Source: a virus (taxonomy: Duplodnaviria > Heunggongvirae > Uroviricota > Caudoviricetes). Taken from it: a stretch of DNA of 24,908 nt. The notes under the pieces are model-generated. The model searched no databases. It saw only the letters and a list, made by a program, of their open reading frames with translations, and was not told the origin of the DNA. The stretch is taken from the IMG/VR virus record IMGVR_UViG_2579778993_000003; one strand, written 5' to 3'. Both the position numbers and the translations under genes were made by a program. This document shows, one piece after another, positions 1-19,460 of the stretch (its first letter is position 1; each line of letters starts with the position of its first letter).

Positions 1-721
1 CTGGCGTCAGTTGTTACGGGAAGGAATCAGGGTGGCCAGATGTACAGTGGCGCGCCTCATGGCGGTTATGGGACTTGCCGGTGTTCTCCGGGGTAAAAAG
101 GTCCGCACTACCGTCAGCCGGAAAACCGTTGCCACAGGTGACCGCGTAAACCGTCAGTTCGTGGCAGAACGACCTGACCAGCTGTGGGTGGCTGATTTTA
201 CTTACGTCAGCACATGGCAGGGCTTCGTCTATGTGGCGTTTATCATTGATGTGTTTGCCGGATACATCGTGGGGTGGCGGGTCTCATCGTCTATGGAAAC
301 GACATTCGTGCTGGATGCGCTGGAGCAGGCGTTGTGGGCCCGTCGTCCGTCTGGCACCATCCATCACAGCGATAAAGGCTCTCAGTATGTGTCACTGGCC
401 TATACGGAGCGACTAAAAGAAGCCGGATTACTGGCATCAACAGGGAGTACAGGCGACTCGTATGACAACGCGATGGCTGAGAGCATCAATGGTCTTTACA
501 AAGCGGAGGTAATACACCGTAAGAGCTGGAAAAACCGTGCAGAAGTGGAACTGGCCACACTAACGTGGGTGGACTGGTATAACAATCGACGATTGCTGGG
601 AAGGCTGGGCCATACTCCTCCGGCAGAAGCAGAAAAAGCTTATTATGCTTCCATCGGAAACGATGATCTGGCAGCCTGAGTTCACAGATAAAACACTCTC
701 CAGGAAACCCGGGGCGGTTCA
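1..721 (+). mobile_element. IS3-family insertion sequence, right-hand part (element continues upstream of the window); right terminus at 721
   Basis: Transposase OrfB occupies 2-679. Sequence 678-721 (gagttcacagataaaacactctccaggaaacccggggcggttca) is the reverse complement of a TGAACCGCCCCGGG... terminal inverted repeat that I recall for IS629/IS3411-type IS3-family elements. The left end is outside the window, so length and target-site duplication cannot be checked. Confidence 0.7.
2..679 (+). CDS. IS3-family transposase OrfB (DDE integrase catalytic domain), 5'-partial at window edge
   Basis: The track ORF 11..679 begins at a TTG, and the frame is open back to position 2, so the true N-terminus lies upstream. 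The translation carries IS3-family OrfB hallmarks (WVADFTYV, HSDKGSQY, GDSYDNAMAESINGLYKAE). Stop TGA at 677-679, immediately followed by the terminal repeat. Confidence 0.85.
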   Translation, partial: WRQLLREGIRVARCTVARLMAVMGLAGVLRGKKVRTTVSRKTVATGDRVNRQFVAERPDQLWVADFTYVSTWQGFVYVAFIIDVFAGYIVGWRVSSSMETTFVLDALEQALWARRPSGTIHHSDKGSQYVSLAYTERLKEAGLLASTGSTGDSYDNAMAESINGLYKAEVIHRKSWKNRAEVELATLTWVDWYNNRRLLGRLGHTPPAEAEKAYYASIGNDDLAA

Positions 722-744
722 CAGTTTGGTAATTGACTAATCAT
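722..744 (-). pseudogene. 5' stub of a prophage gene cut by the IS insertion (ATG at 742-744, only about 7 codons remain)
   Basis: On the minus strand, GGGAG then a 9-nt spacer then ATG ATT AGT CAA TTA CCA AAC runs directly into the IS terminus at 721. A good Shine-Dalgarno with the reading frame ending at the IS boundary suggests a disrupted gene downstream of the lysis cassette. Confidence 0.35.
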
Positions 745-819
745 GAGTCGCAACTCCCTAATCAGTTTGCTAAAATCAATCAAGGCAGCCTCCCATAGCT
801 TACTGCCATAAAAACAAAA

Positions 820-850
820 CCCCGCTTGCTGCCAACAAACGGGGTTTTTA
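820..850. terminator. Bidirectional intrinsic terminator downstream of the endolysin gene
   Basis: Hairpin ccccgcttgctgccaacaaacgggg (820-844) is flanked by an A-run (811-819) and a T-run (845-849), so it can terminate either strand. Confidence 0.6.
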
Positions 851-938
851 CTTTTATTCACTTACATTTTGCCAGTTCGCAGGATTTCGTGTTATCCGTC
901 CGCCTTGGCCAACGTCATTGATTAGCAAAATATTCTGC

Positions 939-1472
939 TTATCTGTCGATTCCCCAGCACGCCAGCGCGCTCTCCTGGTCACGACGGGATACCTGACCGT
1001 AACAGTTATTTGAGCGAATACGGCAGTCTCTGCCACCGTCCTTAATCCACCAGCGAATCGCCTCACACGCTCCCCTGCGATCACCTGCATTAATTCGTTT
1101 ATAAAACGTCGACGGAAAACACTTACCGGGGCCAATGTTGTACGGACAGAATGACGCGATCCCCGCTTTCTGGGGTTCACTCAATGGCACTCTGATGTTT
1201 TTCTCCACCCATGCCAGCGCCTTATCACGCTCAATGGCGTTAACCCGGTCGCATTTTTCCTTCGACAACTTCATGCCCGGAACGACAGGTTTGCCATCCA
1301 CCAGGATGGCACCGCGGCAGATGGTCCAGATACCCGCGCCATCACGGTATGCCGTGGTGTGGTTACCTTCCTTTTCATCCAGAAACTGGTCGAGAATGTC
1401 AGGCGCAGGCGCACCAGCGGCAATCAGCGCCAGAACGGCAGCCGACAGGCCGTATCTGATTTTTGCGTTCAT
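939..1472 (-). CDS. Phage endolysin, lysozyme-like with N-terminal SAR (signal-anchor-release) segment
   Basis: 177-aa ORF. The N-terminus MNAKIRYGLSAAVLALIAAGAPAPD is a weakly hydrophobic Ala/Gly-rich stretch typical of SAR endolysins such as phage 21 R. The body resembles a T4-lysozyme-like muramidase. It lies downstream of a pinholin gene on the same strand. Confidence 0.8.
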   Translation of the reverse strand: MNAKIRYGLSAAVLALIAAGAPAPDILDQFLDEKEGNHTTAYRDGAGIWTICRGAILVDGKPVVPGMKLSKEKCDRVNAIERDKALAWVEKNIRVPLSEPQKAGIASFCPYNIGPGKCFPSTFYKRINAGDRRGACEAIRWWIKDGGRDCRIRSNNCYGQVSRRDQESALACWGIDR

Positions 1473-1577
1473 GGATATTTATCAGGATTTATCGGTTTCT
1501 GAGCCCTGGATATGTTTATCAGTTCCAGCCTGTTGCCTCAGGCTGCTAACAGGTCAATACAATCATGAGGATTATTT

Positions 1578-1850
1578 ATGGACAATAACACCATTTCTCT
1601 ACAGGAGTTGCTCGACAGCATTTCCAGGCTTCGGGAAGACGTGAATACCCTTACCGTCGCCTTCTCATATCTGGCATTCTCAATTCCAAGGGAACAGATG
1701 CAATCAACGCTGGCATCAATCCAGTTTGAATCATGCAATCCCAAATGGTCTCAGGAACAACAAGACTCTTTCAGGCGGCTTGCTGTATTACTGGATGAAA
1801 AATATGCTGGTAAAATTACCATTTCGGCGGACTCTTCAGAGAACCCGTAA
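1578..1850 (+). CDS. Hypothetical 90-aa protein encoded opposite to the lysis genes (possible moron)
   Basis: ATG at 1578 preceded by GAGG with a 7-nt spacer. It sits in the unusually long 343-bp gap between the 114-aa gene and the endolysin start, and its 3' end overlaps the convergent 114-aa gene by about 35 bp. No recognisable motif. Confidence 0.35.
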   Translation: MDNNTISLQELLDSISRLREDVNTLTVAFSYLAFSIPREQMQSTLASIQFESCNPKWSQEQQDSFRRLAVLLDEKYAGKITISADSSENP

Positions 1851-2160
1851 TTATTCCCGGTAGTTTTCCTCTGTAGGTTATCAACACATCCTGCGCCTCT
1901 AAAATTACGGGGCGCTTTTCCGGCGACTGCTCATCCCCTTCACATAACCCGGCAGCAACATCCAGGAAGACCTGTCTGATGCTCCTTCTGGCTGCTGCCT
2001 CATAAAACTCCAGCGCGGCACCTTCAACACGGTCCAGCGAGATGTCCAGGTCAAAAATTTCACCGTCAAAGCGTTTTTTGTCCCGTAACGCTAAAGTTAC
2101 CGTAACTTTATTCTCAAAATTGCGGATCCCTTTCACAATCAGTTCATAGTTTTGAGTCAT
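1816..2160 (-). CDS. Hypothetical 114-aa protein between holin and endolysin
   Basis: ATG at 2158-2160 is preceded by GGGAGAG, 4 bp after the holin stop, so it appears translationally linked within the lysis cassette. No motif recognised. Confidence 0.5.
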   Translation of the reverse strand: MTQNYELIVKGIRNFENKVTVTLALRDKKRFDGEIFDLDISLDRVEGAALEFYEAAARRSIRQVFLDVAAGLCEGDEQSPEKRPVILEAQDVLITYRGKLPGIITGSLKSPPKW

Positions 2161-2164
2161 TGAA

Positions 2165-2380
2165 TTACTCTCCCCGTGCAGCCTTACGACGGTCCTCTCT
2201 GATTTTGAAATACAGGTTAGTCAGATATGTCAGCAGCCCAAACAGCAGACTCCCCAGCACGCCTATTGCCGCCCACTGAGACGGGGAAACCCTGTCCAGC
2301 AACTGCAGGAACCAGTAGCCCGTTCCCACCGCTGACGTGGTGTATGACACACCTGTTGTGATTTTTTCCATCTGGTACAT
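2165..2380 (-). CDS. Class II holin / pinholin (phage 21 S-like), 71 aa
   Basis: The track ORF is 97 aa, but the convincing start is the ATG at 2378-2380, preceded by GGGAGACGGGGT. The product [71 protein letters not shown] closely resembles the phage 21 S pinholin as I recall it (two TMDs, charged C-tail). A second in-frame ATG three codons later could give a dual-start holin/antiholin pair. Confidence 0.8.
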
Positions 2381-2530
2381 ACCCCGTCTCCCGTTATCCG
2401 GAAGCTGACAACAATAAAAAAAGCCACCAGTTAAGTACTGATGGCTCTGATAACTCATGCAGGCATCTCAGACGACCCACTGACACTACCGGTGAGTTTA
2501 ACGATACCTTCCATTTGACTGGCTCACTTT

Positions 2531-4387
2531 TTATGATGATGCTGGTGCATTTATCTCCAGCACCAGACTTTCTATCTCAACGCCATACGCTGCATTTTTG
2601 GTAATATCCGTCAGCGTCAGCGCATTCAGCCCCAGTGTCAGACTGTCTTTTATGACCTGGAATGCCGGGCCAGCCACTCCATTCAGTTTCGGAGTAACCG
2701 TGGCACTGCCGGCGGTGAACACCAGCTCCAGCGTCTGCCAGTCGTTACTGTAATTCCCGAACTCGCCCAACTTTGTGTTTCCTGCTTTCCTGTGATGCAT
2801 CAGATTCAGTTTGCCGTCTGTGGTCTGGGTGAAGAACGACATCAGGAACGGGTTACCAGTCCCGGTCATCGCCACGACGTCAGGTAACGCTACATCGGTA
2901 TACAGATAAATTCCCAGACCGAACTGGTTGTTGGTCAGTGCGCCTGACAGTCGAAACTTACAGCTCAGTCTGCCACCCCGTGTCAGCAGGGAGACTGCGT
3001 CATCCACCGGATGCATCAGGGACCAGGTTTTATTGCTCTGCTTGGTAACCTTAAACACACCATCTTCCAGCGCAACACTGCCGCCGGTGATGGTCCAGCC
3101 CTGCGCAGCAGCCTCTCCGGCTGTCGGCAGCAGGGAGACTGTACGAACGGATGTGTCACCATCAGACGGCCCCGATGGCGTGTCGCCGCCGGGCGAGGGT
3201 TTAATCTCCGGTGCGGTACCGCTGATGAAGGCGCTGGTTCGACCAACTGCGTTCAGAATAGCGGTTGCCAGGCGATCCGAAATAATGCCCCTGCGCGCCC
3301 ATGAACTGAAATGTGTCGGACGATTTGACGATACCCAATTACCATTACTACGGGATTGCGCGCCGTAATAACCTGCATCAGCAATATCCGGGTCTTCTGC
3401 CGGTAAGTTGGTGGGCGTGTTGTTGCCGTTACCGTCGGTCATGAACGGCACAAAGAAAACGTTGTCGCTCTCCCTGTTTTTGTACGCGCCGTAGACGGAG
3501 TCATACTGTGTGCCGTATGTGTTTTTCCAGTAATACGTCGTGTCGCCACAAATCCACGGTACAACTGCAGCACTGCCGCCATGGCACTGCGCCGCCAGCC
3601 CGGCAAGGTCAGCACGGAACTGCTGTACCATTGCAAGAAATGCTGCTGGCTGCTGGGCGTAACTGGCATTCGTCATATCGAATTCCCCCTGCATCCAGCA
3701 TATCGCCAGCAAAACGTTTTTCGGGTTTTTCTGCAATGCTGCCTTCGTGCGGAAAAGCAGATCCTGATATAATGGTTTACCCACACCCCAGCGTGCCGAA
3801 TCCTGGCTGGCCCCCGTGTCCGCACTGAATGTCCCCTCCGCGCCCTGGGTGAATGCCGAACCACCACGACAGCATGGTACCAGCAGGATCCCCGCATTAT
3901 TAGGGATATACGGAAGCAGTTTTTTGGCAATATGTAAGCCCTGTCCGACACAGCCGTACTGCCCTTTGCTCAGGTCAGCCCGGGGATGGTTAATCGTACT
4001 CATATCCTGAACATCATGCAGACAATGGTCAGCAGGAATGATGTCGTTAAATACGCATACTTCACCACCGGGAGTCACTGTGTTACGACGGGCCAGTTGC
4101 TTAATGCGCGGATGGGGCGCATCGTATGAATCCGGAAGCGGAAGCCCTTCACCGTAAGCCATGGCATTGGACTGCCCGGCCAGTACGATGACGTAGTACC
4201 ACTCCGGCTCAGTTGCACCACTGACGACCACATCACCTTCTGCTGCAATCGCCTGCATCAGGGTATAAGGGGTTATGGCCACCGGACTACCAAACGGCTG
4301 CCAGCCCTCTTTCAGTTTATGTGTCAGCTTTTCCGCAAGATCTGACGGCGACGCCGCCCTGACAACATCATAGTGTTTAAATGCCAT
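2531..4387 (-). CDS. Prophage sialate O-acetylesterase-like protein (NanS-p-like; SGNH/SASA hydrolase with extra N- and C-terminal domains), 618 aa
   Basis: Contains the esterase motif LAGQSNAMAYGEG (GQSN catalytic serine block) after an N-terminal ~60-aa domain (MAFKHYDVVRAASPSDLAEKL...), plus a long C-terminal beta-rich region. It sits between the tRNA/stx slot and the holin, the position of NanS-p genes in Stx-type prophages. Confidence 0.7.
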   Translation of the reverse strand: MAFKHYDVVRAASPSDLAEKLTHKLKEGWQPFGSPVAITPYTLMQAIAAEGDVVVSGATEPEWYYVIVLAGQSNAMAYGEGLPLPDSYDAPHPRIKQLARRNTVTPGGEVCVFNDIIPADHCLHDVQDMSTINHPRADLSKGQYGCVGQGLHIAKKLLPYIPNNAGILLVPCCRGGSAFTQGAEGTFSADTGASQDSARWGVGKPLYQDLLFRTKAALQKNPKNVLLAICWMQGEFDMTNASYAQQPAAFLAMVQQFRADLAGLAAQCHGGSAAVVPWICGDTTYYWKNTYGTQYDSVYGAYKNRESDNVFFVPFMTDGNGNNTPTNLPAEDPDIADAGYYGAQSRSNGNWVSSNRPTHFSSWARRGIISDRLATAILNAVGRTSAFISGTAPEIKPSPGGDTPSGPSDGDTSVRTVSLLPTAGEAAAQGWTITGGSVALEDGVFKVTKQSNKTWSLMHPVDDAVSLLTRGGRLSCKFRLSGALTNNQFGLGIYLYTDVALPDVVAMTGTGNPFLMSFFTQTTDGKLNLMHHRKAGNTKLGEFGNYSNDWQTLELVFTAGSATVTPKLNGVAGPAFQVIKDSLTLGLNALTLTDITKNAAYGVEIESLVLEINAPASS

Positions 4388-4580
4388 GAATCCTCCCGGC
4401 CGGGATAATATTGTGAGTAAAATGAGGAGCGGGCTGAAGTCCGGAAGTTACAGGACAATGGCAGAAGAGAGACAACAGCCCGCAATACGAAAAAGGCCGC
4501 GCTATTGCGCAGAGTGATTACTGTCGGATATTATTCGCCAGCTGAAATATTACTTCACGTTTTATTGTTTATTCCTTGCC

Positions 4581-4609
4581 GCCCGCGTCTCCCAGCGCGG
4601 GCTTTTTTT
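4581..4609 (+). terminator. Plus-strand intrinsic terminator
   Basis: Stem gcccgcg (4581-4587) pairs with cgcgggc (4596-4602) around an 8-nt loop, followed by T7 (4603-4609). The T-tract is only on the plus strand, implying a plus-strand transcript ends here, antisense to the late operon. Confidence 0.55.
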
Positions 4610-4616
4610 GCCCACA

Positions 4617-4850
4617 AGAAAACCCCTCCGGAGAGGGGCTAAAGCCGCGTATCTGTATCATCATGCACATGGTGCCGGGTGCCTCCCGGTGAGTTCAGCC
4701 CGGTGCCACTAAACCCGCGTCATTCTCGTTTTGATAATCAGAGATTATACCGTCACCAGTCGCCCCTCCGCTCAGGGGGATTCACCATGCGAAATTTTTT
4801 TAACAAATGCCCAGTCTGACAGGCAACTGTCAACTTACTGAATTGTGAGC
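4617..4850. repeat. Direct repeat unit A (~230 bp), degenerate copy of unit B, rich in palindromic hairpins
   Basis: Shares ordered conserved blocks with 5105-5318: aaaa(c/g)ccctccggagaggggct, gcatggtgccgggtgcctcccggtga, cccctccgc.cagggggattcaccatgc, ttttaacaaa and cagtcaac...ctgaattgtgag. The first block is a perfect 6-bp hairpin (CCCCTC cgga GAGGGG, 4623-4638) preceded by an A-run, so it is a minus-strand terminator. Confidence 0.6.
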
Positions 4851-4875
4851 AACATAGCATTTAACGGGGAACCTG

Positions 4876-4903
4876 TTTTCTGCAGTAAAAAGGCCCACCG
4901 GAG
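4876..4903 (-). terminator. Minus-strand intrinsic terminator between the two repeat units
   Basis: Hairpin GGCCCA (4882-4887) / TGGGCC (4898-4903) around a 10-nt loop, with a plus-strand A-run at 4877-4881 giving a T-tract on the minus-strand transcript. Confidence 0.5.
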
Positions 4904-5104
4904 CGGATGGGCCTGGAAGGATAGCGGTCATGTGATGCCGGTTTCCCGGTAACTCAGCACCGGTATCTGAGTCAACGTTTTCTCTACTGGGTCATTTCCG
5001 ATACGCCCTGCCTGCTGACAGGCTTTCATCACATCTGAAAATATAGCACCCTGACTGATACTGTAGTACCTAAGGTTCCAGAAACTGTGATGTATCCGGC
5101 ACAG

Positions 5105-5318
5105 AAAAGCCCCTCCGGAGAGGGGCTGGAGAGTGGCGCTATGTGCCATTGCATGGTGCCGGGTGCCTCCCGGTGAATTCAGTACCAGCACCTGAATCCG
5201 CGATTATCCCATATACCTACTCGCTGATTGCCCCTCCGCACAGGGGGATTCACCATGCCAGTTTCTTTTAACAAACTCCCCGCAAACCAGACAACAGTCA
5301 ACCGCCTGAATTGTGAGA
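5105..5318. repeat. Direct repeat unit B (~215 bp), degenerate copy of unit A
   Basis: Same conserved blocks as unit A, including the CCCCTC cgga GAGGGG hairpin (5110-5125) and the 8-bp inverted pair gcatggtg / caccatgc bracketing a variable ~110-nt core. Confidence 0.6.
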
Positions 5319-5323
5319 CATTT

Positions 5324-5347
5324 AAAAAAAAGCCCGCAAAAGCGAGC
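5324..5347 (-). terminator. Minus-strand terminator-like hairpin directly after the tRNA cluster
   Basis: Plus-strand A8 (5324-5331) then gcccgc aaaa gcgagc (5332-5347); on the minus strand this is an imperfect 6-bp hairpin followed by T8. Confidence 0.45.
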
Positions 5348-5362
5348 CAGTGAAAATAAGTG

Positions 5363-5439
5363 TGGCGCGTTGTACTGGATTCGAACCAGTGACCGATTGC
5401 TTAGAAGGCAATTGCTCTGTCCGGCTGAGCTAACAACGC
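5363..5439 (-). tRNA. tRNA-Arg (anticodon UCU)
   Basis: Manual cloverleaf on the minus strand: acceptor GCGTTGT/ACAACGC, D-stem GCTC/GAGC, anticodon stem ATTGC/GCAAT with loop CTTCTAA, T-arm ACTGG-TTCGAAT-CCAGT, discriminator G and encoded CCA. All stems perfect; 77 nt. Confidence 0.9.
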
Positions 5440-5452
5440 AGGATACAGATAA

Positions 5453-5529
5453 TGGACCGCCTTCGGGGACCCGAACTCCGCGCAACCAGCTTCGAAGGCT
5501 GGCGCTCTTTCCTGATGAGCTAATGGCGG
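5453..5529 (-). tRNA. Putative tRNA-Arg (anticodon UCG), slightly degenerate
   Basis: Cloverleaf fits with D-stem GCTC/GAGC, anticodon stem CCAGC/GCTGG with loop CTTCGAA, and encoded CCA. There is one mismatch in the acceptor stem (A-A), one in the T-stem (A-C), and an atypical T-loop TTCGGGT, so it may be a diverged or pseudo tRNA. Confidence 0.55.
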
Positions 5530-5536
5530 TATGTGA

Positions 5537-5612
5537 TGGTGGCCCTTGCTGGATTTGAACCAGCGACCTGGCGATTATGAGTCGCTCGCTCTCACCACTG
5601 AGCTAAAGGGCC
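5537..5612 (-). tRNA. tRNA with CAU anticodon (Met by anticodon; resembles the Ile2/lysidine-type ileX/ileZ class)
   Basis: Minus-strand sequence GGCCCTTTAGCTCAGTGGTGAGAGCGAGCGACTCATAATCGCCAGGTCGCTGGTTCAAATCCAGCAAGGGCCACCA folds as a 76-nt cloverleaf with one A-C mismatch in the anticodon stem. It closely resembles E. coli ileX as I recall it. Confidence 0.85.
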
Positions 5613-5661
5613 GGGAGCAGAATAATAATGGTGCGTAATTAATTCTGCAATCTCATCCGTT

Positions 5662-6711
5662 TCAAACGATTAAATCCTGAACTTCCCTGACTGTCTGCTC
5701 AAAACGTCCGGTCTCCAGCTCAACACCAATCGCACGACGCCCCAGTGCCATCGCCGCTTTTACCGTTGAACCCGACCCCATGAAAAAATCCGCAACCAGA
5801 TCACCAGGACGGCTACTTGCGCTGATTATCTGCTGCAGCATTTCTGCCGGTTTTTCGCACGGATGTTTCCCGGGATAGAACTGCACCGGTTTATGCGTCC
5901 ACACATCGGTATACGGCACCTGCACCGTCACGCCAAAATACCGCCGCAGATGTTTATATTCACTCAGCAGCTCCGCATACTGCCGGTTCAGTGAGGTATA
6001 CGTATCCACCAGCTGGTGGTGGAGCTTTTCCAGTTCACCACGCCGATGCTTCTCTTCTGCCACCCGGGCAAACAGCGCCTGTAATTTCAGATAATCGCTT
6101 TCATTCGGTAGCTGCCACTGACTGGCACTGAACCAGTGCGACACCATGTTTTTCTTTCCTGTGGCATCTGCAATCTGTTTTGCCGTTATCCCCAAGGCCG
6201 CGCGCGCATCACGAAAGTAAGAAATCAGCGGGGCCATCACATGCTGTTTCAGTGCACTGCCCTTCGCCGCATACCCGGCATCTTTCGGACGATACGGCCC
6301 CTGATAATGTTCCGCGAACAGAATGCGCTCTGTGGCGGGGAAATACGCCCGCAGGCTTTCCTTGTTGCACCCGTTCCAGCGTCCGGACGGCTTCGCCCAG
6401 ATAATATGGTTCAGCACACTGAAGCGTTCACGCATCATGATTTCGATATCAGATGCCAGGCGATGACCACAGAACAGGTAAAGACTTCCGGCAGGTTTCA
6501 GCACCCGCCAGAACTGCGCCAGACACTGGTCCAGCCATTTCAGGTAATCATCGTCGCCCTTCCACTGGTTATCCCAGCCCTCAGGCTTCACTTTAAAGTA
6601 CGGCGGGTCCGTGACTATCAGGTCAACAGAATTTTCGGGTAACGACCGGATAAATTCCAGGCAGTCGGCGTTGATTAACTCACAACTGGATATTTTTACA
6701 GTATTAAGCAT
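5662..6711 (-). CDS. Orphan DNA methyltransferase (amino-MTase, N6-adenine or N4-cytosine; motif order DPPY then FxGxG)
   Basis: 349 aa with catalytic motif IVTDPPYF near the N-terminus and the AdoMet-binding motif FFMGSGST near the C-terminus. No restriction endonuclease gene is adjacent. ATG at 6709-6711. Confidence 0.85.
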   Translation of the reverse strand: MLNTVKISSCELINADCLEFIRSLPENSVDLIVTDPPYFKVKPEGWDNQWKGDDDYLKWLDQCLAQFWRVLKPAGSLYLFCGHRLASDIEIMMRERFSVLNHIIWAKPSGRWNGCNKESLRAYFPATERILFAEHYQGPYRPKDAGYAAKGSALKQHVMAPLISYFRDARAALGITAKQIADATGKKNMVSHWFSASQWQLPNESDYLKLQALFARVAEEKHRRGELEKLHHQLVDTYTSLNRQYAELLSEYKHLRRYFGVTVQVPYTDVWTHKPVQFYPGKHPCEKPAEMLQQIISASSRPGDLVADFFMGSGSTVKAAMALGRRAIGVELETGRFEQTVREVQDLIV

Positions 6712-6804
6712 GGATCATTAAGCCTGTCTCTGATAGGCTCATTCTGCTTTTGCGCAAAGCAGTGGGCCTGAGGTTTGCTTGTGAACCCAACGCATGAGCA
6801 GATG

Positions 6805-6833
6805 GCTGGTGGGTGCCCCTAACACCCACCAGC
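6805..6833 (-). other. Perfect 11-bp stem-loop without U-tract in the 5' region upstream of the methyltransferase gene
   Basis: gctggtgggtg (6805-6815), loop cccctaa, cacccaccagc (6823-6833). No T-run on either side, so it is not a canonical terminator; possibly an RNA processing or stability element or a protein-binding site. Confidence 0.4.
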
Positions 6834-6845
6834 CGCCCATTTACC

Positions 6846-6875
6846 ACAAATAAAAAAGCCTTCACTGCGGAAGGC
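6846..6875 (-). terminator. Minus-strand intrinsic terminator (second terminator downstream of Q)
   Basis: Stem GCCTTC (6858-6863) / GAAGGC (6870-6875) with loop actgcg, preceded on the plus strand by A6 (6852-6857), giving a hairpin plus T-tract on the minus-strand RNA. Confidence 0.5.
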
Positions 6876-7059
6876 GTCTGTAACAACCGAACTGATAGTC
6901 TGCCAGACCCGCCATAACCAGCTGAGTCAGTATTAACTGGCAGCGTTCGCGTGAAAGGTAAGTATTCTGCGCAATCTCCCCGACTGTCGCCGGTTCGGTG
7001 ACGCTTAATTCATTAAACACCACTCTGGCGGTTTCTGTCATATCCTGCTGTTTTAGCAT
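6862..7059 (-). CDS. Hypothetical small protein (about 65 aa) between the Q-proximal terminator and the methyltransferase gene
   Basis: Internal ATG at 7057-7059 preceded by AAGGGA; the track ORF extends to 7146 but lacks support upstream. No motif recognised; low confidence that it is translated. Confidence 0.3.
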   Translation of the reverse strand: MLKQQDMTETARVVFNELSVTEPATVGEIAQNTYLSRERCQLILTQLVMAGLADYQFGCYRRLPQ

Positions 7060-7181
7060 GTCTTTTTCCCTTTTCCGGTTAACGTGACACACCAATAACT
7101 CTTGTCGAAAAAGCCAGCAAGCTGAAAGACAGGTATTCACCGCCACCAGCGCGTTTACTGTACTGACGCGATTTCAGTCAT

Positions 7182-7203
7182 AAAAAACCCGCCAGGCGGC
7201 GGG
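7182..7203 (-). terminator. tR'-like intrinsic terminator about 80 bp downstream of the Q gene
   Basis: On the minus-strand RNA: stem CCCGCC, loop GCCU, stem GGCGGG, then UUUUUU (plus-strand A-run 7182-7187, stems 7188-7193 and 7198-7203). Confidence 0.6.
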
Positions 7204-7252
7204 GTGTAAAAAATCTTCTAACGTCAGGCATAAAACGCCTATCGTTAGAGCA

Positions 7253-7280
7253 AATTTACCACAGATTCGGGAAAAATCAA
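7253..7280 (-). promoter_or_regulatory. Candidate late promoter (pR'-like) with expected Q-utilisation region
   Basis: On the minus strand, TTGATT (-35, complement of 7275-7280), a 16-nt spacer, then TAAATT (-10, complement of 7253-7258). It lies just downstream of the Q stop (7286-7288) and about 45-60 nt upstream of the terminator at 7182-7203, mirroring the lambda pR'-6S RNA-tR' layout. Confidence 0.4.
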
Positions 7281-7285
7281 CAACA

Positions 7286-8107
7286 CTATCGCGTTACCCT
7301 CTTTAACTGCCGCTCCGCCCATGCCTCTTCAATGTCAAACCGAACCACCAACGTATCGTAAAAGCGTTTCACTGATTTTTTCCACGTATCAAGCGTGATA
7401 GCACTCGTCACTTTGCGTATGGCATTAAATGCCTCCGTTGATGGTAGTCTTTCACAGCCACGACCACCACAACGCTGGCAGTCTCTGATAACAGGCATAC
7501 CACGTTTTACCGACTCTTCACGATGAATGGCAACACCACGCCCACGGCAGTCTTTACAGGCAGTGGAAATCTCCCCCTTCCCTTTACATTCAGGACAAGA
7601 AACTTTCACCACCTCCCGAATTTTTTTCCATTCTTCCCAGTAAGACGGATACACACCTTTCGTACACTTTGCCCATACTGGCGGCTTGCCATCCGGATAC
7701 TGAACCTTGTTTGTAAAAACTTCGCCTTCAATAAATTTTTCCCCTCGGCAACAGGGGCACTGCTTTTTACTCGCTGCGCTGCGGGCATAATCCTCAAAAG
7801 CGTACGAAGCCATAATGCGCATCACTACCGGTTTTATTTCTGCCGGAAGTTTTCTCAACGCCGCCACACGATCGCACCGACTGAGTGCATAATCTGCCAG
7901 TAATTCTGTTGCCCGCGCCCTGTCATTCATACTGATGCCCATTTTCCCCAGGAACGCAGAAAACCCCATCTCAGCCCGATTCTGTGTCATGCCCTGCGCG
8001 GCCATCACATCAGTGATACTCAGCGCATCTTTCGACGTTGAGGCCGATGCATCAGTCAGGCCGGGGGATTTTGGGGAGTAGTATTTCGGTAAATCTTCCA
8101 GTTTCAT
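7286..8107 (-). CDS. Putative late-gene antiterminator Q (Cys-rich, zinc-finger type), 273 aa
   Basis: Directly downstream of rusA with a 4-bp ATGA overlap, and followed by a promoter plus terminator pair. Contains repeated CxxC motifs (CPCCRGEK, CPECKGKGE, CKDCRGRG, CQRCGGRGCE). Family assignment rests on synteny and motifs. Confidence 0.6.
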   Translation of the reverse strand: MKLEDLPKYYSPKSPGLTDASASTSKDALSITDVMAAQGMTQNRAEMGFSAFLGKMGISMNDRARATELLADYALSRCDRVAALRKLPAEIKPVVMRIMASYAFEDYARSAASKKQCPCCRGEKFIEGEVFTNKVQYPDGKPPVWAKCTKGVYPSYWEEWKKIREVVKVSCPECKGKGEISTACKDCRGRGVAIHREESVKRGMPVIRDCQRCGGRGCERLPSTEAFNAIRKVTSAITLDTWKKSVKRFYDTLVVRFDIEEAWAERQLKRVTR

Positions 8108-8484
8108 TTTTTGACCTGCTCTTCATGCATTATGGGGTAAATCTTCACCCCCAGACGTCCACCAGATACTGGCTGACCACGAACGATATTGATTTCATCA
8201 AACTGCTCATCGTCCATTAGCAACCCCGCATGCGTCAGCGCATCCAGCGGCGCTTTCAGAATATTGTCCAGATCACGGCGGCGCTTATCCGGTGGTTCTG
8301 CAATAATTTTTATTGCCAACCTTCCGGACAGGCTTAATTTCAGCCGCTGCTGGCGAACAATAAGCGCCACTGCCCGGCGATAACGCTCCCCGGCTTTTGA
8401 TACAAAATATGTGCTGCCACGACGACGCCAGTAAGTGTTCACCGTTGGCGGGTAAGGCAAAACAAATTCTATGCGTTCAGTCAT
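8104..8484 (-). CDS. rusA: RusA-family Holliday junction resolvase
   Basis: 126 aa; the segments LPYPPTVNTYWRRRG and DKRRRDLDNILKAPLDALTHAGLLMDDEQ match the RusA fold and catalytic Asp cluster. Typical position in a lambdoid nin region just upstream of Q. Confidence 0.85.
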   Translation of the reverse strand: MTERIEFVLPYPPTVNTYWRRRGSTYFVSKAGERYRRAVALIVRQQRLKLSLSGRLAIKIIAEPPDKRRRDLDNILKAPLDALTHAGLLMDDEQFDEINIVRGQPVSGGRLGVKIYPIMHEEQVKK

Positions 8485-9543
8485 TTATGCTTTCCACTTC
8501 AGAACACCCGAATTTCTCGCGTGCATTAAAAAACGAATCAGCAACAACAGCTGGCTGCCGTGTTTTTCTTCAAAATCTTTTACCCCGGCGTGTAGTTCGC
8601 TATGGCATTTACGGCACAGCGGAATAACAAACAAATCATCAGCCTTTGTTCCCATCCCTCCCAGTCCATGACCAATGATGTGATGCGGATCATCTGCCTG
8701 ATTGCCACACGTCATGCATTTCTGCGTTTTTACCCAGCGCGTGTATACAGGCATCTCTTCCCGTTGTGATTTCTGGCGCTGGAGATACTGAGCCGGTGAC
8801 TCGGGATCAACGGCAATGCTGACCACCGTCTTTTCCTGTGGTGGGTTCTGTTGCTGGTGGGCGTGAGGCAGCGGCGCAAGATTTTTTGTGCGCTGTTTCA
8901 GTATGCTGGTGGCGGTCTGCTCTCCCGGTATGATGTCGCTTTCACTGTACACAGAGCGAATTTTTTCCGCACGCAACCCCAGCGAACGACGTAATACCGC
9001 TTCCGGTAGCGCGTCCGCCACCTGATTGCGGACCGCCCACCAGGATAATTCAGCCAGAGATAATTCACGCTCCTGCGTACCGCTTATTGCGTGACCGATG
9101 ACGTCAATCATCCATGCTGACAGGTTTTGATGAGCAAGTTGCCCGAGTGATTCGGATGTCTGGTCACGCAGCTGGTTGTCGCAGTGCCAGCACAACACCA
9201 TTGCGCCGGTACCATAACGGTGAATGACGGTTTCGCTGTGATGATAATCGCCGTGTGGCCACTGGCAGGATTTAATATGGCGCAACAGCCAGTCAGACAA
9301 TGCACCAGCACCACCAGCAGCACGAATCACCCGTGCGTTACTGAAAAACGGCAGCAATGTTTTGTCTTCCACCAGCGGCTGGCGAGCGGCAGGAACGACC
9401 CCGGACGGCAGATTACGCATGCTTTTTGGTTCCGGCTCCACCAGTATTCTGCCGTTATGGAATGCTGACATTGATTCACGGCCTGGCTTAACGATAACCA
9501 GACCGAGTTCCGGTACCAGAACAGATCGAAGTAATACCCGCAC
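8485..9543 (-). CDS. DUF968-type prophage protein with C-terminal HNH-like zinc-finger nuclease motif (YdfU-like)
   Basis: The C-terminus CMTCGNQADDPHHIIGHGLGGMGTKADDLFVIPLCRKCHSELH has the Cys/His spacing of HNH endonucleases. The start is ambiguous: GTG at 9541-9543 has a strong SD (GGAGG), and an alternative ATG lies at 9469-9471. Confidence 0.65.
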   Translation of the reverse strand: MRVLLRSVLVPELGLVIVKPGRESMSAFHNGRILVEPEPKSMRNLPSGVVPAARQPLVEDKTLLPFFSNARVIRAAGGAGALSDWLLRHIKSCQWPHGDYHHSETVIHRYGTGAMVLCWHCDNQLRDQTSESLGQLAHQNLSAWMIDVIGHAISGTQERELSLAELSWWAVRNQVADALPEAVLRRSLGLRAEKIRSVYSESDIIPGEQTATSILKQRTKNLAPLPHAHQQQNPPQEKTVVSIAVDPESPAQYLQRQKSQREEMPVYTRWVKTQKCMTCGNQADDPHHIIGHGLGGMGTKADDLFVIPLCRKCHSELHAGVKDFEEKHGSQLLLLIRFLMHARNSGVLKWKA

Positions 9544-10177: not shown

Positions 10178-10194
10178 AACACACCCACAAATAA

Positions 10195-10224
10195 ATCAAA
10201 CCCGCTACAGCGGGTTTGATTTAT
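10195..10224. terminator. Bidirectional intrinsic terminator shared by the small plus-strand ORF and the protease/ATPase operon
   Basis: Perfect 10-bp stem TCAAACCCGC (10196-10205), loop tacag, GCGGGTTTGA (10211-10220), with T/A-rich runs on both sides. Confidence 0.65.
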
Positions 10225-10231
10225 ATAGTTG

Positions 10232-12496
10232 TTATACGGAAACTGGCACACGAGCAGGCAATGGATAGTGAGCCCAGTTATTAGCATTTAAAGCTCTTAC
10301 GCCATCAGCATAAACTTGTGTTTTTCCATCTAATGATTTTAAAGTTACTACAATAGTTACAGGTAAAGGCTCCATTAAGGCCGGTTCATTCGCTCTCAAC
10401 GTTGTTTTAGCTTGAAGAGCCCAGTTACCCGAAGTAATTCCTTTATTAAATGCCTTGCGATGAATTTTTACTGGTGACCACTTTCCACCATGCTCAATTT
10501 GAGCTCTCTCATATCCAGATTGACCGTTTTCTCCTTCCATAGGTACTTTTCCTTTTATAGTATTATTCTCAATTAAGCCAAAACTTAGCTCTACGTTCGC
10601 GCGAACATATTCACTGCCGGCATTAGGGTTCAGTGGTGGTGCATATGCAGCAGTAATTACAATCTCACCTTTAAATTTTCCATTTTGAATAAGTGCCGAT
10701 GGTATGGGATAGTTTTCCTTTCTCCACCTCACCCCAGGAACCAAGAATGTTTGGAAAATCAGAGTAAACCTATCATCACTATCATATAAGGTCTCAATAA
10801 CCTCATTAGGAATTCCCGCTCCCAAATAGCGTCTTTCACTTGGCGAGTAATCAGGAGAAGATAATTGAGCGGAATGAATTAATAATGCTTTAATCAATGA
10901 TGGTGAAACATTAAAGTCTGAATTAGTGGCTATTCTCTGCCATGTATGCGCAGCTAAACTTGCCACAATTGGAGCAGCAAAACTAGTACCAAAATTAGAG
11001 CAAAGCCTATTATCTGGCCCTACGACCTTTAAACTGCTTGCTCCTACATTCCAAGGTCTATGAACCCCACCGCCAGCATGGATTATATCTGGCTTTGGAG
11101 TAAATACAGGCCCAGGGCCACGACGAGTATATGGTGTCGGTGTTCCAATTTCACTTAAAGCATCATTAGCTTCCATATGAGAAACTGAACCAACTGTTAG
11201 TGCTCGGACTGACTCTCCAGGAGAGGAAATTAAATCAGCACCTCCAAGCGGATCAGGATTTGGCCATGTACGTATAGGTTCATCTACATAATTACCTGCA
11301 GCAACTACAAACAAAATACCAAATTTATCGCTGAGCCGATCTAACTCCATCGCAAAATCACTAAACATCTGCTCATTACATGGTCCGCCTCCCAAAGATA
11401 AATTCCAGACTTTTATATCTGGTCTTTTATTTACAGCATCTGCTAGCCTCAGAATTAAATCTGATATATAAGATCCATTTTCATCTAAAGCACAAACATC
11501 ATGGATTTTAGATTTTGTATCAGGAATCCATGGATGATTGTCATTTAAAAAATGAGCGCCTGATATCAATGAAGACACCATAGTCCCATGTTCATAACTC
11601 GTATCAGGAGGAATTACGTATGTTTCCCTACTCACTACCCAAGGAGTAATTGTTGCCGCGATGGGGCTTACCCCAGTGTCAAATACAGCAACAATGGGTA
11701 ATTCTTCTGATGGTACGGGAAAGCTATTTGTTTCAATGCCAACAGAATCACTTACACTAACCGGGAATGCTGAATATTTTGGTTCTGGAATTAACGTTCT
11801 TATACCCGGGTAATCAATGAGAATGTCTAATATATATCTATCATTTGGGGATAAATCCATTATCCTTAATAAGGGAAGACCACATTTTGGTCTAATCTCA
11901 TCATATTTAACTCCGTGTTGTTCTAATATAGAAATAACGTTTTCATAGTTGTTGTAAGTTGCATCTTCACCTGTGTACTCAAATAGTCGTACAAGGATGT
12001 TTGATGATTCAAACAAACCATCAGTGCCTCCTGGAACCTTCCTATTCTCATCCCAAGGTTCAATGCGCTCAATCGCGCTTAGATTAGCCAAAATCGCTTT
12101 AATATTCCGATGTAAAATGACTGACTCTAATACGTCAAAACAGCCGGCATGAGCAGCAACCAACATTTCATCTATTTTGGCATGACCGGCATTTTGCAAT
12201 CCAGCCTCTTGAGCAATTTTGTTCGGCCTATGCGTTTTGGCTATTCCCTGGTCTCTTAATTTGAAAACCAAAGTACCCAAGCTTCCAGGGTACTCTGAAA
12301 GTTTGGATTCTAAATAATGTTTACTGGTTGTTAAATTTCTTACTAGCCCTTGTCTATATTCGGCTGTTACATCAACCAATACCTTTGCCCCACCGCCAGC
12401 GTTTACTATTGCACCCAAGTCACTACTGGAAAAAGGGATTCTTAACATTGGGTTTGTAACTTTTGCGTTACTAAACTGTGTACCCCTTCTGCTCAT
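10232..12496 (-). CDS. Subtilisin-like serine protease (peptidase S8) with extra N- and C-terminal domains, 754 aa; protease component of an IetAS-like two-gene system
   Basis: Catalytic residues in subtilisin order: Asp in VAVFDTGVS, His in YEHGTMVSS, oxyanion Asn in VVAAGNY, Ser in GTSFAAPIVAS. ATG at 12494-12496 with a GGAG/AGGAG SD inside the 3' end of the upstream ATPase gene (26-bp overlap). A+T-rich relative to neighbouring prophage genes. Confidence 0.9.
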   Translation of the reverse strand: MSRRGTQFSNAKVTNPMLRIPFSSSDLGAIVNAGGGAKVLVDVTAEYRQGLVRNLTTSKHYLESKLSEYPGSLGTLVFKLRDQGIAKTHRPNKIAQEAGLQNAGHAKIDEMLVAAHAGCFDVLESVILHRNIKAILANLSAIERIEPWDENRKVPGGTDGLFESSNILVRLFEYTGEDATYNNYENVISILEQHGVKYDEIRPKCGLPLLRIMDLSPNDRYILDILIDYPGIRTLIPEPKYSAFPVSVSDSVGIETNSFPVPSEELPIVAVFDTGVSPIAATITPWVVSRETYVIPPDTSYEHGTMVSSLISGAHFLNDNHPWIPDTKSKIHDVCALDENGSYISDLILRLADAVNKRPDIKVWNLSLGGGPCNEQMFSDFAMELDRLSDKFGILFVVAAGNYVDEPIRTWPNPDPLGGADLISSPGESVRALTVGSVSHMEANDALSEIGTPTPYTRRGPGPVFTPKPDIIHAGGGVHRPWNVGASSLKVVGPDNRLCSNFGTSFAAPIVASLAAHTWQRIATNSDFNVSPSLIKALLIHSAQLSSPDYSPSERRYLGAGIPNEVIETLYDSDDRFTLIFQTFLVPGVRWRKENYPIPSALIQNGKFKGEIVITAAYAPPLNPNAGSEYVRANVELSFGLIENNTIKGKVPMEGENGQSGYERAQIEHGGKWSPVKIHRKAFNKGITSGNWALQAKTTLRANEPALMEPLPVTIVVTLKSLDGKTQVYADGVRALNANNWAHYPLPARVPVSV

Positions 12497-13625
12497 ATGC
12501 TCCTGACTCCTTCAGAATGTTTGAAATTACTCTTGATGTAAGTTTGTACAAATTAGCAAGAACTCTGATAGAAAATAATTTTTTATCTTTAGAACGTAAC
12601 CAACGAATTTCATCTTCGTAAGTGCTTAAATTTACACCTTCCATAAGCGATTGCGCAAGATACAAACGCCTATACAATTTATGGTGATTTATCACACTTG
12701 CACCTTCAATAACTGCATCCCTACGTGCATCCAAGCTCACCTGTTCAATTATTGCTCCGGATAATCCCTCCGATTTTCTTGATAAATCACTTAAATCTAG
12801 ATCGCTACATATCATATTCTTTAAACGATTTTTCCAAATTAACTCTCTCTGATGTATGTCAGGCAGAGGCATTGGAATTCTGAAGCTAAATCGCCTCCAG
12901 ATTGCAGGATCCAGAAGTTGCTCATGGTTAGTTGAGGCAATAATTACCGTATCCTCTGATGCCGCATCCATATTCTGCAATAGTGAAATGACAACTCGCT
13001 GAAGCTCACCTATATCTCTCTCATTACCTCTTGCTCCAGCTAAAGCATCAAATTCGTCTAAAAAAAGCACTGATGGCCTCTGCATTACATAATCGAAAAC
13101 CTGTCTAAGATTTTTGCTGGTTTGTCCCAATAAACTACTAATCAAAGTATCGCAACGCACTGTAAGAAGTGGAAAATCTAAGCGGGTAGCGATGTACTTA
13201 GATAACATAGTCTTACCTGTTCCTGGCTTTCCATACACGAGCATACGACTCGGCAATGCTGCATCAGCTTTAACAAACTCATCATAACGTTGAACATTAG
13301 TGATAAACTCTTCAACACGGGTACTGATTGCTGCAGGCAGAAAAATCTCTGAACTGTCTAATTTAGGATAACTGACATCAACAGTGTTGAGTCGACTATC
13401 AATATCTACCGGTAATGAGCCCAGAGATATCCCACCTCCAGCCCTTTGAGCTCCTGCCAACGCCTGGGGAGCTCTAAGCAACCTTTCTCTTATCATTCTG
13501 GCTTGCTTGACCTCCCCTTTTTGTTCGAGCTTATCTGCCAGCAACCCAGCATAATTACTAGCCATCGAAGCATTTGCCTTTGTTGCACCTTCAATGATTT
13601 TTAACACTTCTGATAAATAATCCAT
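12471..13625 (-). CDS. Classic AAA-family ATPase, 384 aa; ATPase component of an IetAS-like two-gene system
   Basis: Walker A GKPGTGKT, Walker B VLFLDEFD, and a second-region-of-homology-like segment ASTNHEQLLDPAIWRRFSF with sensor Asn and Arg fingers. ATG at 13623-13625 preceded by GGGAG with a 6-nt spacer, after an AT-rich ~190-bp leader. Confidence 0.9.
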   Translation of the reverse strand: MDYLSEVLKIIEGATKANASMASNYAGLLADKLEQKGEVKQARMIRERLLRAPQALAGAQRAGGGISLGSLPVDIDSRLNTVDVSYPKLDSSEIFLPAAISTRVEEFITNVQRYDEFVKADAALPSRMLVYGKPGTGKTMLSKYIATRLDFPLLTVRCDTLISSLLGQTSKNLRQVFDYVMQRPSVLFLDEFDALAGARGNERDIGELQRVVISLLQNMDAASEDTVIIASTNHEQLLDPAIWRRFSFRIPMPLPDIHQRELIWKNRLKNMICSDLDLSDLSRKSEGLSGAIIEQVSLDARRDAVIEGASVINHHKLYRRLYLAQSLMEGVNLSTYEDEIRWLRSKDKKLFSIRVLANLYKLTSRVISNILKESGAYEQKGYTV

Positions 13626-19099: not shown

Positions 19100-19460
19100 T
19101 CTCCACGGGTCAGGTGGAGTGCGTGCGCCGGACACGGGTGAACATCCGGCACTGACAGTTTACTGAAAGGATATGTCCCTGAAAAGTCAGGGCATAACGC
19201 GAAAGCGCACGGCGAAATTGGTCTCTCTGTACGGTGTCGTTAAATTTAGTTCGACCGTGCGCTTCCGGTTGTGGCAATCCGCGAAATGGTGCGGCGGTAA
19301 GTATGGCGGGGGTATTCCTTCCCCCGTTGAGGACACCGGGTTGTCAGGTTGACCATACGCTTAAGTGACAACCCCGCTGCAACGCCCTCTGTTATCAATT
19401 TTCTGGTGACGTTTGGCGGTATCAGTTTTACTCCGTGACTGCTCTGCCGCCCTTTTTAAA
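19100..19460. other. GC-rich, hairpin-dense non-coding region (candidate structured RNA or DNA site)
   Basis: No convincing ORF. Several perfect stems: GCCGGA/TCCGGC nested inside GTCAG/CTGAC (19111-19156), CCCTGA aaag TCAGGG (~19177-19194), GCGCACGG...CCGTGCGC enclosing ~45 nt (~19205-19262), CGGGGG tattcctt CCCCCG (~19307-19326), and GGGTTGTCA-19 nt-TGACAACCC (~19338-19374). Confidence 0.3.

Follow-up and report, generated by a model that had tools for sequence, protein, structure and literature searches.

Does the DNA directly 3' of a Q antiterminator gene hold the switch for the late genes beyond it, and how does a very stable hairpin without a U-tract fit into that switch? The DNA analyzed is a stretch of 24,908 nucleotides (hereafter the window) from IMG/VR record IMGVR_UViG_2579778993_000003, a lambdoid prophage of Escherichia coli. 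The region in question runs on the minus strand from position 7285, where a Q gene ends, to position 6712, where a DNA methyltransferase gene is about to begin. A preliminary description of the region, made from its letters, had proposed a lambda-like promoter and terminator gating the late genes, followed by a second terminator and the U-less hairpin. We find that the region is very probably a late-gene regulatory cassette with a Q of the lambda family. The grounds are homology, conservation, covariation, and gene order, and from these we infer promoter activity, pausing, Q binding, read-through, and a function for the leader described below. The cassette is an ordinary, textbook lambda-style late switch, set apart by an unusually short PR' RNA and an enlarged arm on Q; a structured leader before the methyltransferase gene, with a Chi site embedded in it, is the only item of the locus that is possibly new.

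The Q protein and its putative late promoter

The protein encoded next to the region is a member of the lambda-Q family (Pfam PF03589, 170 bits, E 9e-51), aligned with lambda Q from first residue to last at 30% identity (BLASTP). Two blocks of it (residues 1-113 and 183-273) match the lambda Q chain of PDB entry 7ubm (7ubm_Q), with E 2e-38. Between these blocks, and unlike lambda Q, the window protein has a 69-residue insertion (residues 114-182) that is rich in DnaJ-like CxxCxGxG motifs and adds extra CxxC pairs, although its match to DnaJ_CXXCXGXG is subthreshold (30 bits against a cut-off of 32.7). The insertion falls in the zinc-ribbon "arm" of lambda Q, which touches positions 11-13 of the Q-binding element (QBE) as well as sigma region 4 (PMC9388147). 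Having so much enlarged an arm, this Q subfamily lends itself to comparison with the lambda-Q structures; searches of the literature yielded nothing specific to its promoter.

A Q cassette is defined by the Q gene, the promoter PR', a sigma-dependent pause element, a terminator, and the late genes (PMC9388147). The promoter of the preliminary description (TTGATT, 16 nt, TAAATT, minus strand, just 3' of Q) is present at 7280-7253, with an extended -10 element and with homology to lambda pR', which likewise stands directly after Q. Aligned directly 3' of the Q stop codon, lambda reads TTGACT-17-TAAATT-TGACTC-AACGAT-GGG and the window reads TTGATT-16-TAAATT-TGCTCT-AACGAT-AGG. The -10 hexamer, the 6 nt from it to AACGAT at +1 to +6, and a G-rich, discriminator-like triplet are thus common to both, whereas the -35 hexamer differs, the triplet is AGG rather than GGG, and the spacer is unrelated in sequence and 16 nt rather than 17 nt long.

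In lambda, AACGAT at +1 to +6 is a -10-like element whose re-binding by sigma70 causes the +16 pause on which Q loading depends; the GGG behind it acts as a discriminator-like enhancer of the pause (PMC4005639). The initially transcribed region of the window has such a -10-like hexamer and G-rich triplet, the hexamer being that of lambda and in the same register, and is regarded as a putative pause element. By that register, transcription would start at A7246 and the pause is predicted near +16/+17 (7231/7230). The T17/G18 step with a G at -10 agrees, as we take it, with the consensus elemental pause.

Judged by consensus alone, pR' is no better than chance (8 of 12 positions), and terminator-like sites are not above chance between 5500 and 8500 (5 against 3.5 expected). 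Because both of these scores are unremarkable, the case rests on homology and conservation. Homologous loci were compared in two sets: 41 loci of species-representative genomes (Klebsiella, Enterobacter, Kluyvera, Silvania, Leclercia, Kosakonia, Buttiauxella, and others), with Q homologues 38-95% identical, and 80 close relatives on viral contigs. The window has the composite motif TGNTAWWTT-N6-AAYGATRGG at a single place (7261-7238), whereas 100 shuffles gave none; each Q locus that carries the motif has it once, on the same strand as Q and about 28 nt beyond the Q stop codon, a layout that holds for Q homologues down to 38% identity. Among 37 distinct regions 3' of Q, 35 have the promoter, about 6 nt, AACGAT(G/A)GG, and then an intrinsic terminator, the end of its U-tract falling between +57 and +75, and most also have a predicted stem in which +1 to +4/5 pair with (U/A)CGUU about 20 nt further on.

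The spacer between -35 and -10 (TTTCCCGAATCTGTGG) is conserved as well. The block TTTTCC(C/G)(G/T)AA(T/A)CTGTG is kept in 24 distinct promoters whose Q proteins are 53-100% identical, whereas the DNA upstream of -40 is not conserved, and the clade with a Q of about 250 amino acids and about 40% identity has a different conserved spacer (CTTGCAAtATTCAAAAA..TGGtTAGgAT). Since the spacer covaries with the Q clade, we consider it a putative Q-binding element.

The terminator tR' and the predicted short RNA

An intrinsic terminator stands between this promoter and the late genes, as in lambda, and the 7182-7203 hairpin of the preliminary description was borne out as a GC stem with a T6 tract. Its stem differs between variants (CCCGCC/GGCGGG, CCACCG/GGTGG, CTGCCG/GGCGGT, CCGCG/CGCGG), and 47 of 61 distinct variants have a hairpin of -8 kcal/mol or lower followed by at least five T residues, most of the others having weaker hairpins. 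It is this conservation, and not their number, that makes the terminator sites of the region credible. The window tR' ends at about +65, in contrast to that of lambda, which we take to end at about +194, where the lambda sequence has a terminator-like hairpin and a T-run; the window differs further in having a second terminator and a small gene before the next late gene.

The first stem base of tR' (7203) is also a mosaic junction. Only from this base downstream is sequence shared with 22 of 24 phage records, which upstream of it have unrelated Q genes and promoters (e.g., Stx2_EH2201, with a 126-amino-acid Q, and phiP27), and some E. coli genomes share only the part from Q through tR'. These sharing patterns indicate that Q, pR', and the pause element travel as one module and tR' with the late genes as another.

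The RNA terminated at tR' is predicted to be about 62-65 nt long (7246 to about 7182-7184), somewhat longer than the 45-60 nt given before. It would consist of a 27-nt 5' stem-loop, a 16-nt AU-rich linker, and the terminator hairpin with U6. Throughout this Q family, lambda included, bases +1 to +5 of the pause element are predicted to pair with the conserved (U/A)CGUU and form a stem-loop flush with the 5' end of the RNA; the lambda leader folds alike, with a predicted stem between +1 to +5 and the downstream (U/A)CGUU (L002, 788-812). We know of no described role for a 5'-flush stem-loop in late transcripts of the Q family. In E. coli mRNAs, a stem-loop that starts at +1 protects from 5'-end-dependent decay, and we take such protection to be the likeliest role here.

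Proposed operation of the switch

Without Q, sigma70 RNA polymerase would start at pR' near A7246, sigma region 2 would re-bind AACGAT at +1 to +6, and the polymerase would pause at about +16/+17, escape, and terminate at tR' (7203-7182), leaving an RNA of about 62-65 nt. With Q present, Q would bind the spacer between -35 and -10, load onto the paused complex, and render it resistant to terminators. Transcription could then pass tR', a 65-amino-acid gene, and terminator 2 (6875-6852) and continue through the leader, the methyltransferase gene, three tRNAs, the slot with the small RNAs (sRNAs), the esterase gene, and the holin/lysozyme genes, with at least seven further terminator-like hairpins en route. 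The late (lysis) genes for holin, DUF1327 protein, and lysozyme do lie 3' of the cassette on the same strand as Q.

Terminator-like sites between 1 and 7300 number 19 on both strands against 7.1 ± 2.8 expected, at least nine of those on the late-gene strand being convincing, and no consensus promoter was found on the late-gene strand in the scanned late region (1-7300; 5500-8500). Such an excess of terminators and absence of promoters would fit a need for processive antitermination if transcription is to arrive at the esterase and lysis genes, and we infer that the methyltransferase gene depends on Q as well. The lambda pR'/tR' arrangement that the preliminary description saw as the gate to the late genes is thus supported by the family of the Q protein, the homology of pR', a layout that recurs in many genera, and a conserved tR' hairpin.

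A structured leader before the methyltransferase gene

The stem-loop of 11 bp described at 6805-6833 is there, and it indeed lacks a U-tract (AUCUGCUCAUG follows the stem, and the terminator scan omits the hairpin), but its size had been slightly under-called, since 12 perfect pairs and two U.G pairs span 6804-6834 (-29.3 kcal/mol, z -5.4). A search of the whole window for inverted repeats left it out, and a local search reported it. Its assignment to the termination apparatus did not hold: it is helix P1, the most stable of five helices in a structured leader of about 140 nt that precedes the methyltransferase gene.

The leader is found at 74-100% identity before the same methyltransferase gene in SfV, mEp460, phage cdtI, Stx2a, Stx2c, and Stx2e phages, and a Providencia phage, and also in prophages of Kosakonia, Mangrovibacter, and Buttiauxella, independently of the type of Q or the gene upstream. 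Its indels in relatives are not multiples of three, and the leader is therefore noncoding. A 33-codon open reading frame from the ATG at 6840 was rejected, as 1-nt indels in relatives shift or extend its frame. Only chance-level matches were returned by cmscan of 6600-7400 against Rfam 15 (E ≤ 10), the best being P26 (24 bits against a gathering score of 36), and nothing specific on a methyltransferase leader was found in literature searches.

De novo folding of the leader with RNAalifold gave a mixed structure with an almost nil covariation term (-0.93), and a blind scan of its column pairs was swamped by clade structure. Five helices (P0-P4) were instead proposed by hand and built into a covariance model (R1), with which 67 distinct sequences were realigned. 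Standard pairs form in 83.9% of the cells, against 30-44% when the partners are slid by 1-3 columns; changes of both partners are seen in 22 pairs, the slid controls having 4-9; and none of 500 shuffles reached the observed values. The best pair, 6800/6776 in P2, is U-A in 35 sequences, C-G in 17, and A-U in 13. P1 could be lengthened by pairing AUGGGC with GCUCAU, to give an RNase III-like stem of about 20 bp, but this longer form competes with P2; we prefer P2 because it holds this three-way covarying pair.

The start codon of the methyltransferase (6711-6709) follows UGAUCC and is without a canonical Shine-Dalgarno sequence. UGAUC(C/U) before a start codon is presumably complementary to 16S rRNA just 5' of the anti-Shine-Dalgarno core, which we offer purely as a hypothesis. 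Most likely, the leader would set the stability or the translation of the methyltransferase mRNA.

Partial leaders were seen in three relatives. Two of them, on viral contigs (L090, at about 2070-2203, and L182, at about 13057-13210), keep helix P1 only, and a third (L252) loses the leader after P4 begins; in each, unrelated AT-rich DNA follows. The hairpin and leader are therefore recombination junctions too, like tR'.

Both arms of P1 contain the Chi octamer GCTGGTGG as an inverted pair (minus strand, 6826-6833; plus strand, 6805-6812). Where shuffles predict 0.89 copies of the octamer, the window has 14, of which 10 are on the minus strand (sense for the late operon). A second inverted pair, the overlapping palindrome CCACCAGCTGGTGG at 6006-6019, lies inside the methyltransferase gene. 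Invariance of the exact 18-mer arm in the initial set of relatives was an artefact, since that arm had itself served as the bait; when the search was repeated with an independent anchor downstream, the exact 18-mer sense-strand arm was kept in 165 of 184 leaders.

We tentatively propose, as a possibility somewhat short of even chances, that the P1 hairpin belongs to a previously undescribed, five-helix cis-regulatory RNA of about 140 nt before the late-operon methyltransferase gene of many lambdoid phages (Escherichia, Shigella, Kosakonia, Mangrovibacter, Buttiauxella, Providencia), whatever their Q. It would control mRNA stability, processing, or Shine-Dalgarno-independent translation, and the 5' arm of P1 would double as an actively oriented Chi that shields rolling-circle DNA from RecBCD, placing one sequence under two constraints. 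Should the leader be functional, it would be a new phage RNA element and an example of Chi inside an RNA helix.

Counterevidence and alternative explanations

Several observations weigh against the cassette and leader as set out above. The consensus scan of 5500-8500 called no promoter on the late-gene strand, pR' falling below the threshold of 9; the triplet after AACGAT is not the GGG of lambda; and conservation is the sole pointer to the putative binding of Q at the spacer. The leader alignment was fitted to the proposed structure and contains many close relatives, so that its covariation statistics lean toward that structure. An extended -10-like sequence, TGTGGTAAAT (6847-6838), lies just after terminator 2 and could give Q-independent transcription of the methyltransferase gene, although it is inconsistent across relatives.

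From this last point, one could argue that the terminators are mere 3' ends of the Q and small-gene transcripts and that the methyltransferase and downstream genes are expressed from a promoter of their own in the leader, independently of Q. The leader does always follow a terminator-like hairpin and opens with TGTG(N2-4)AATGGG, the SfV/mEp460 clade reads TGTGAAAAT, an acceptable extended -10 element, and a transcript begun there would start with the very stable P1 hairpin, a common mRNA-stabilizing design. Yet the distance from TG to AAT varies by 2 nt among relatives, the window hexamer TAAATG is without the critical T at -7, GGAAAT variants are without the A at -11, the scan of 5500-8500 found no promoter on this strand either, and the lambda-type pause element upstream would be left unexplained; we think this explanation quite improbable. 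Another possibility, unlikely though less so, is that in the lysogen the locus mainly yields the short pR'-tR' RNA and that this RNA is a trans-acting regulatory sRNA. The model for this is StxS of the Stx phages Sp5 and Sp15, which stems from constitutive PR' transcription stopped at tR' in lysogens and binds Hfq (PMC7547250). The RNA of the window is built like an sRNA, with a 5' hairpin, 16 nt of AU-rich single strand, and a terminator with U6, and was compared with StxS in its origin (PR' to tR') and this architecture. StxS is cut by RNase E from a 258-nt precursor to 74 nt, whereas a length of about 63 nt is predicted for the window RNA before any processing. Homologous cassettes do not conserve the linker sequence, which shows no conserved seed, and the RNA has no match in Rfam. 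A role of this kind would in any case be added to a Q cassette rather than replace it.

For the hairpin, the alternative is a feature of the DNA, an inverted Chi pair that modulates RecBCD on phage DNA, and no RNA structure at all. The excess of Chi on the late-gene sense strand, the presence of Chi in both arms, and the near constancy of the sense-strand arm all speak for it. There are, however, variants of the arm that break Chi (GCTGGCGG, GCTGGAGG, GCTAGTGG, ACTGGTGG), in one otherwise homologous leader (L264) the hairpin is replaced by an unrelated one of 13 bp that lacks Chi, the antisense Chi is found in some variants only, and the 3' arm varies mostly from C to U, which keeps G.U pairs in the sense RNA only. 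A role confined to the DNA therefore appears improbable to us. We favor a hairpin selected as an RNA structure, with the Chi of its 5' arm either additional or incidental; roles in DNA and RNA are not mutually exclusive.

The small gene between the two terminators

An open reading frame of 65 amino acids between tR' and terminator 2, overlooked in the preliminary description, is judged a real gene and the first of the late genes. It belongs to PHROG 331, and its match to Pfam TrmB is below threshold (E 0.0026); from orf47 of SfV it differs by substitutions at third positions and by an indel of 3 nt. A longer version of 94 amino acids from a GTG start (6862-7146) gave a better score against phrog_331 but was rejected owing to 2-nt indels between GTTAACC and the ATG in relatives, and the ATG at 7059 was kept as the start. 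The 120 nt upstream of this ATG are at least as conserved as the gene itself in SfV, phiP27, and Stx2 phages (e.g., CTTGCTGGCTTTTTCGACAAGAGTTATTGGTGTGTCACGTTAACC). This region (7060-7181) yielded no promoter consensus and has a sense-strand Chi at 7143-7150 that is not invariant among relatives.

Terminator 2, also claimed earlier, was confirmed, with a stem at 6875-6858 and a T6 tract at 6857-6852. The stop codon of the small gene sits in its loop, and terminator 2 is the 3' end of that gene.

Relation to known phages

The order Q, terminator, small open reading frame, DNA methyltransferase, (tRNAs, stx), and lysis genes is that of SfV, mEp460, and phiP27/Stx2 phages, which share the family of the small open reading frame, the leader, and the methyltransferase; in the SfV record, the annotation already includes a rho-independent terminator after Q. 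SfV and mEp460 differ in having the Q clade of about 250 amino acids with its different spacer, and phiP27 and most Stx2a phages in having an unrelated Q, with sequence shared only from the tR' stem (7203) onward. The Stx phages carry stx where the window has two sRNA genes of the STnc100 family.

The cassette is part of a prophage module that is very common in E. coli: positions 7150-7400 agree with strain BEC1-S17-ESBL-09 at 100% identity and with many ST131 genomes at 99.6%, and a match is present in 1,577 of 5,426 complete E. coli genomes. Of practical value are the exact coordinates of the predicted start site, the pause element, the putative Q-binding site, and the terminator (Table 1). 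As the same module gates stx in some Stx2a phages (e.g., Stx2_EH1910), these coordinates transfer directly to questions of toxin expression.

TABLE 1 Features of the late-gene cassette and of the surrounding prophage, with window coordinates
Feature	Position(s)	Strand	Evidence or remark
DUF968/HNH protein	8485-9543	minus	
RusA	8104-8484	minus	
Q antiterminator gene, 273 aa	7286-8107	minus	
pR' -35 hexamer TTGATT	7275-7280	minus	Sequence; aligns with lambda TTGACT
-35/-10 spacer, 16 nt, putative Q-binding element	7259-7274	minus	Conservation
Extended -10 element TGgTAAATT	7253-7261	minus	TG at 7261-7260, hexamer TAAATT at 7258-7253; hexamer as in lambda pR'
Putative pause element AACGAT (+1 to +6) with discriminator-like AGG	7238-7246	minus	Register with lambda
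5' stem-loop of pR' transcript (+1 to +27), predicted	7220-7246	minus	-10.5 kcal/mol, z -3.55
tR' intrinsic terminator	7182-7203	minus	6-bp all-GC stem CCCGCC/GGCGGG (7203-7188), 4-nt loop, T6 (7187-7182)
Conserved noncoding 5' region of small gene	7060-7181	minus	Non-multiple-of-three indels across phages
First late gene, 65-aa open reading frame	6862-7059	minus	phrog_331, E 1.4e-37; weak TrmB-like winged helix
Second intrinsic terminator	6852-6875	minus	Stem kept through loop and stem changes in relatives
Structured noncoding leader, about 140 nt	6709-6851	minus	Covariance model R1, 160 bits at site
Leader helix P0	6839-6835/6767-6763	minus	
Leader helix P1	6834-6821/6817-6804	minus	
U-less hairpin (leader helix P1)	6804-6834	minus	Arms 6804-6815 and 6823-6834, 12 nt, 100% complementary, 7 nt apart
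Leader helix P2	6800-6793/6783-6776	minus	
Leader helix P3	6762-6756/6750-6744	minus	
Leader helix P4	6742-6735/6725-6718	minus	
N6/N4 DNA methyltransferase	5662-6711	minus	Pfam PF01555, E 4e-43; PADLOC MTase_II; gene served by leader
tRNA-Met, tRNA-Arg, tRNA-Arg	5363-5612	minus	
STnc100-family sRNAs, two copies	4610-4819 and 5097-5287	minus	Rfam, 161 and 136 bits
Sialate-esterase-like gene	2531-4387	minus	
Holin	2165-2458	minus	
DUF1327 protein	1816-2160	minus	
Lysozyme	939-1472	minus	
IetA (AAA ATPase)	12471-13625	minus	PADLOC, E 9e-143
IetS (S8 subtilase)	10232-12496	minus	PADLOC, E 6e-300
Chi sites (examples)	1047, 6006/6012, 6805/6826, 7143, 8853, 8905, 9311, 9369, 16946, 21999, 22588, 24542		

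Prophage setting

Each of the two STnc100 copies has its own terminator, and both sit in the slot that holds stx2AB in related phages; a 2026 preprint linked STnc100 to PasD prophage sRNAs and esterase genes. Between the replication and nin-like regions lies the anti-phage defense pair IetAS (10232-13625, minus strand). Directly 3' of the IetS gene is the longest perfect hairpin-type inverted repeat of the window (10191-10224), with 16-nt arms set 2 nt apart (ATAAATCAAACCCGCT/AGCGGGTTTGATTTAT), which resembles a bidirectional terminator. The early-left region of the prophage has a gene for the antisense sRNA DicF (19401-19452, plus strand; Rfam, 76.7 bits).

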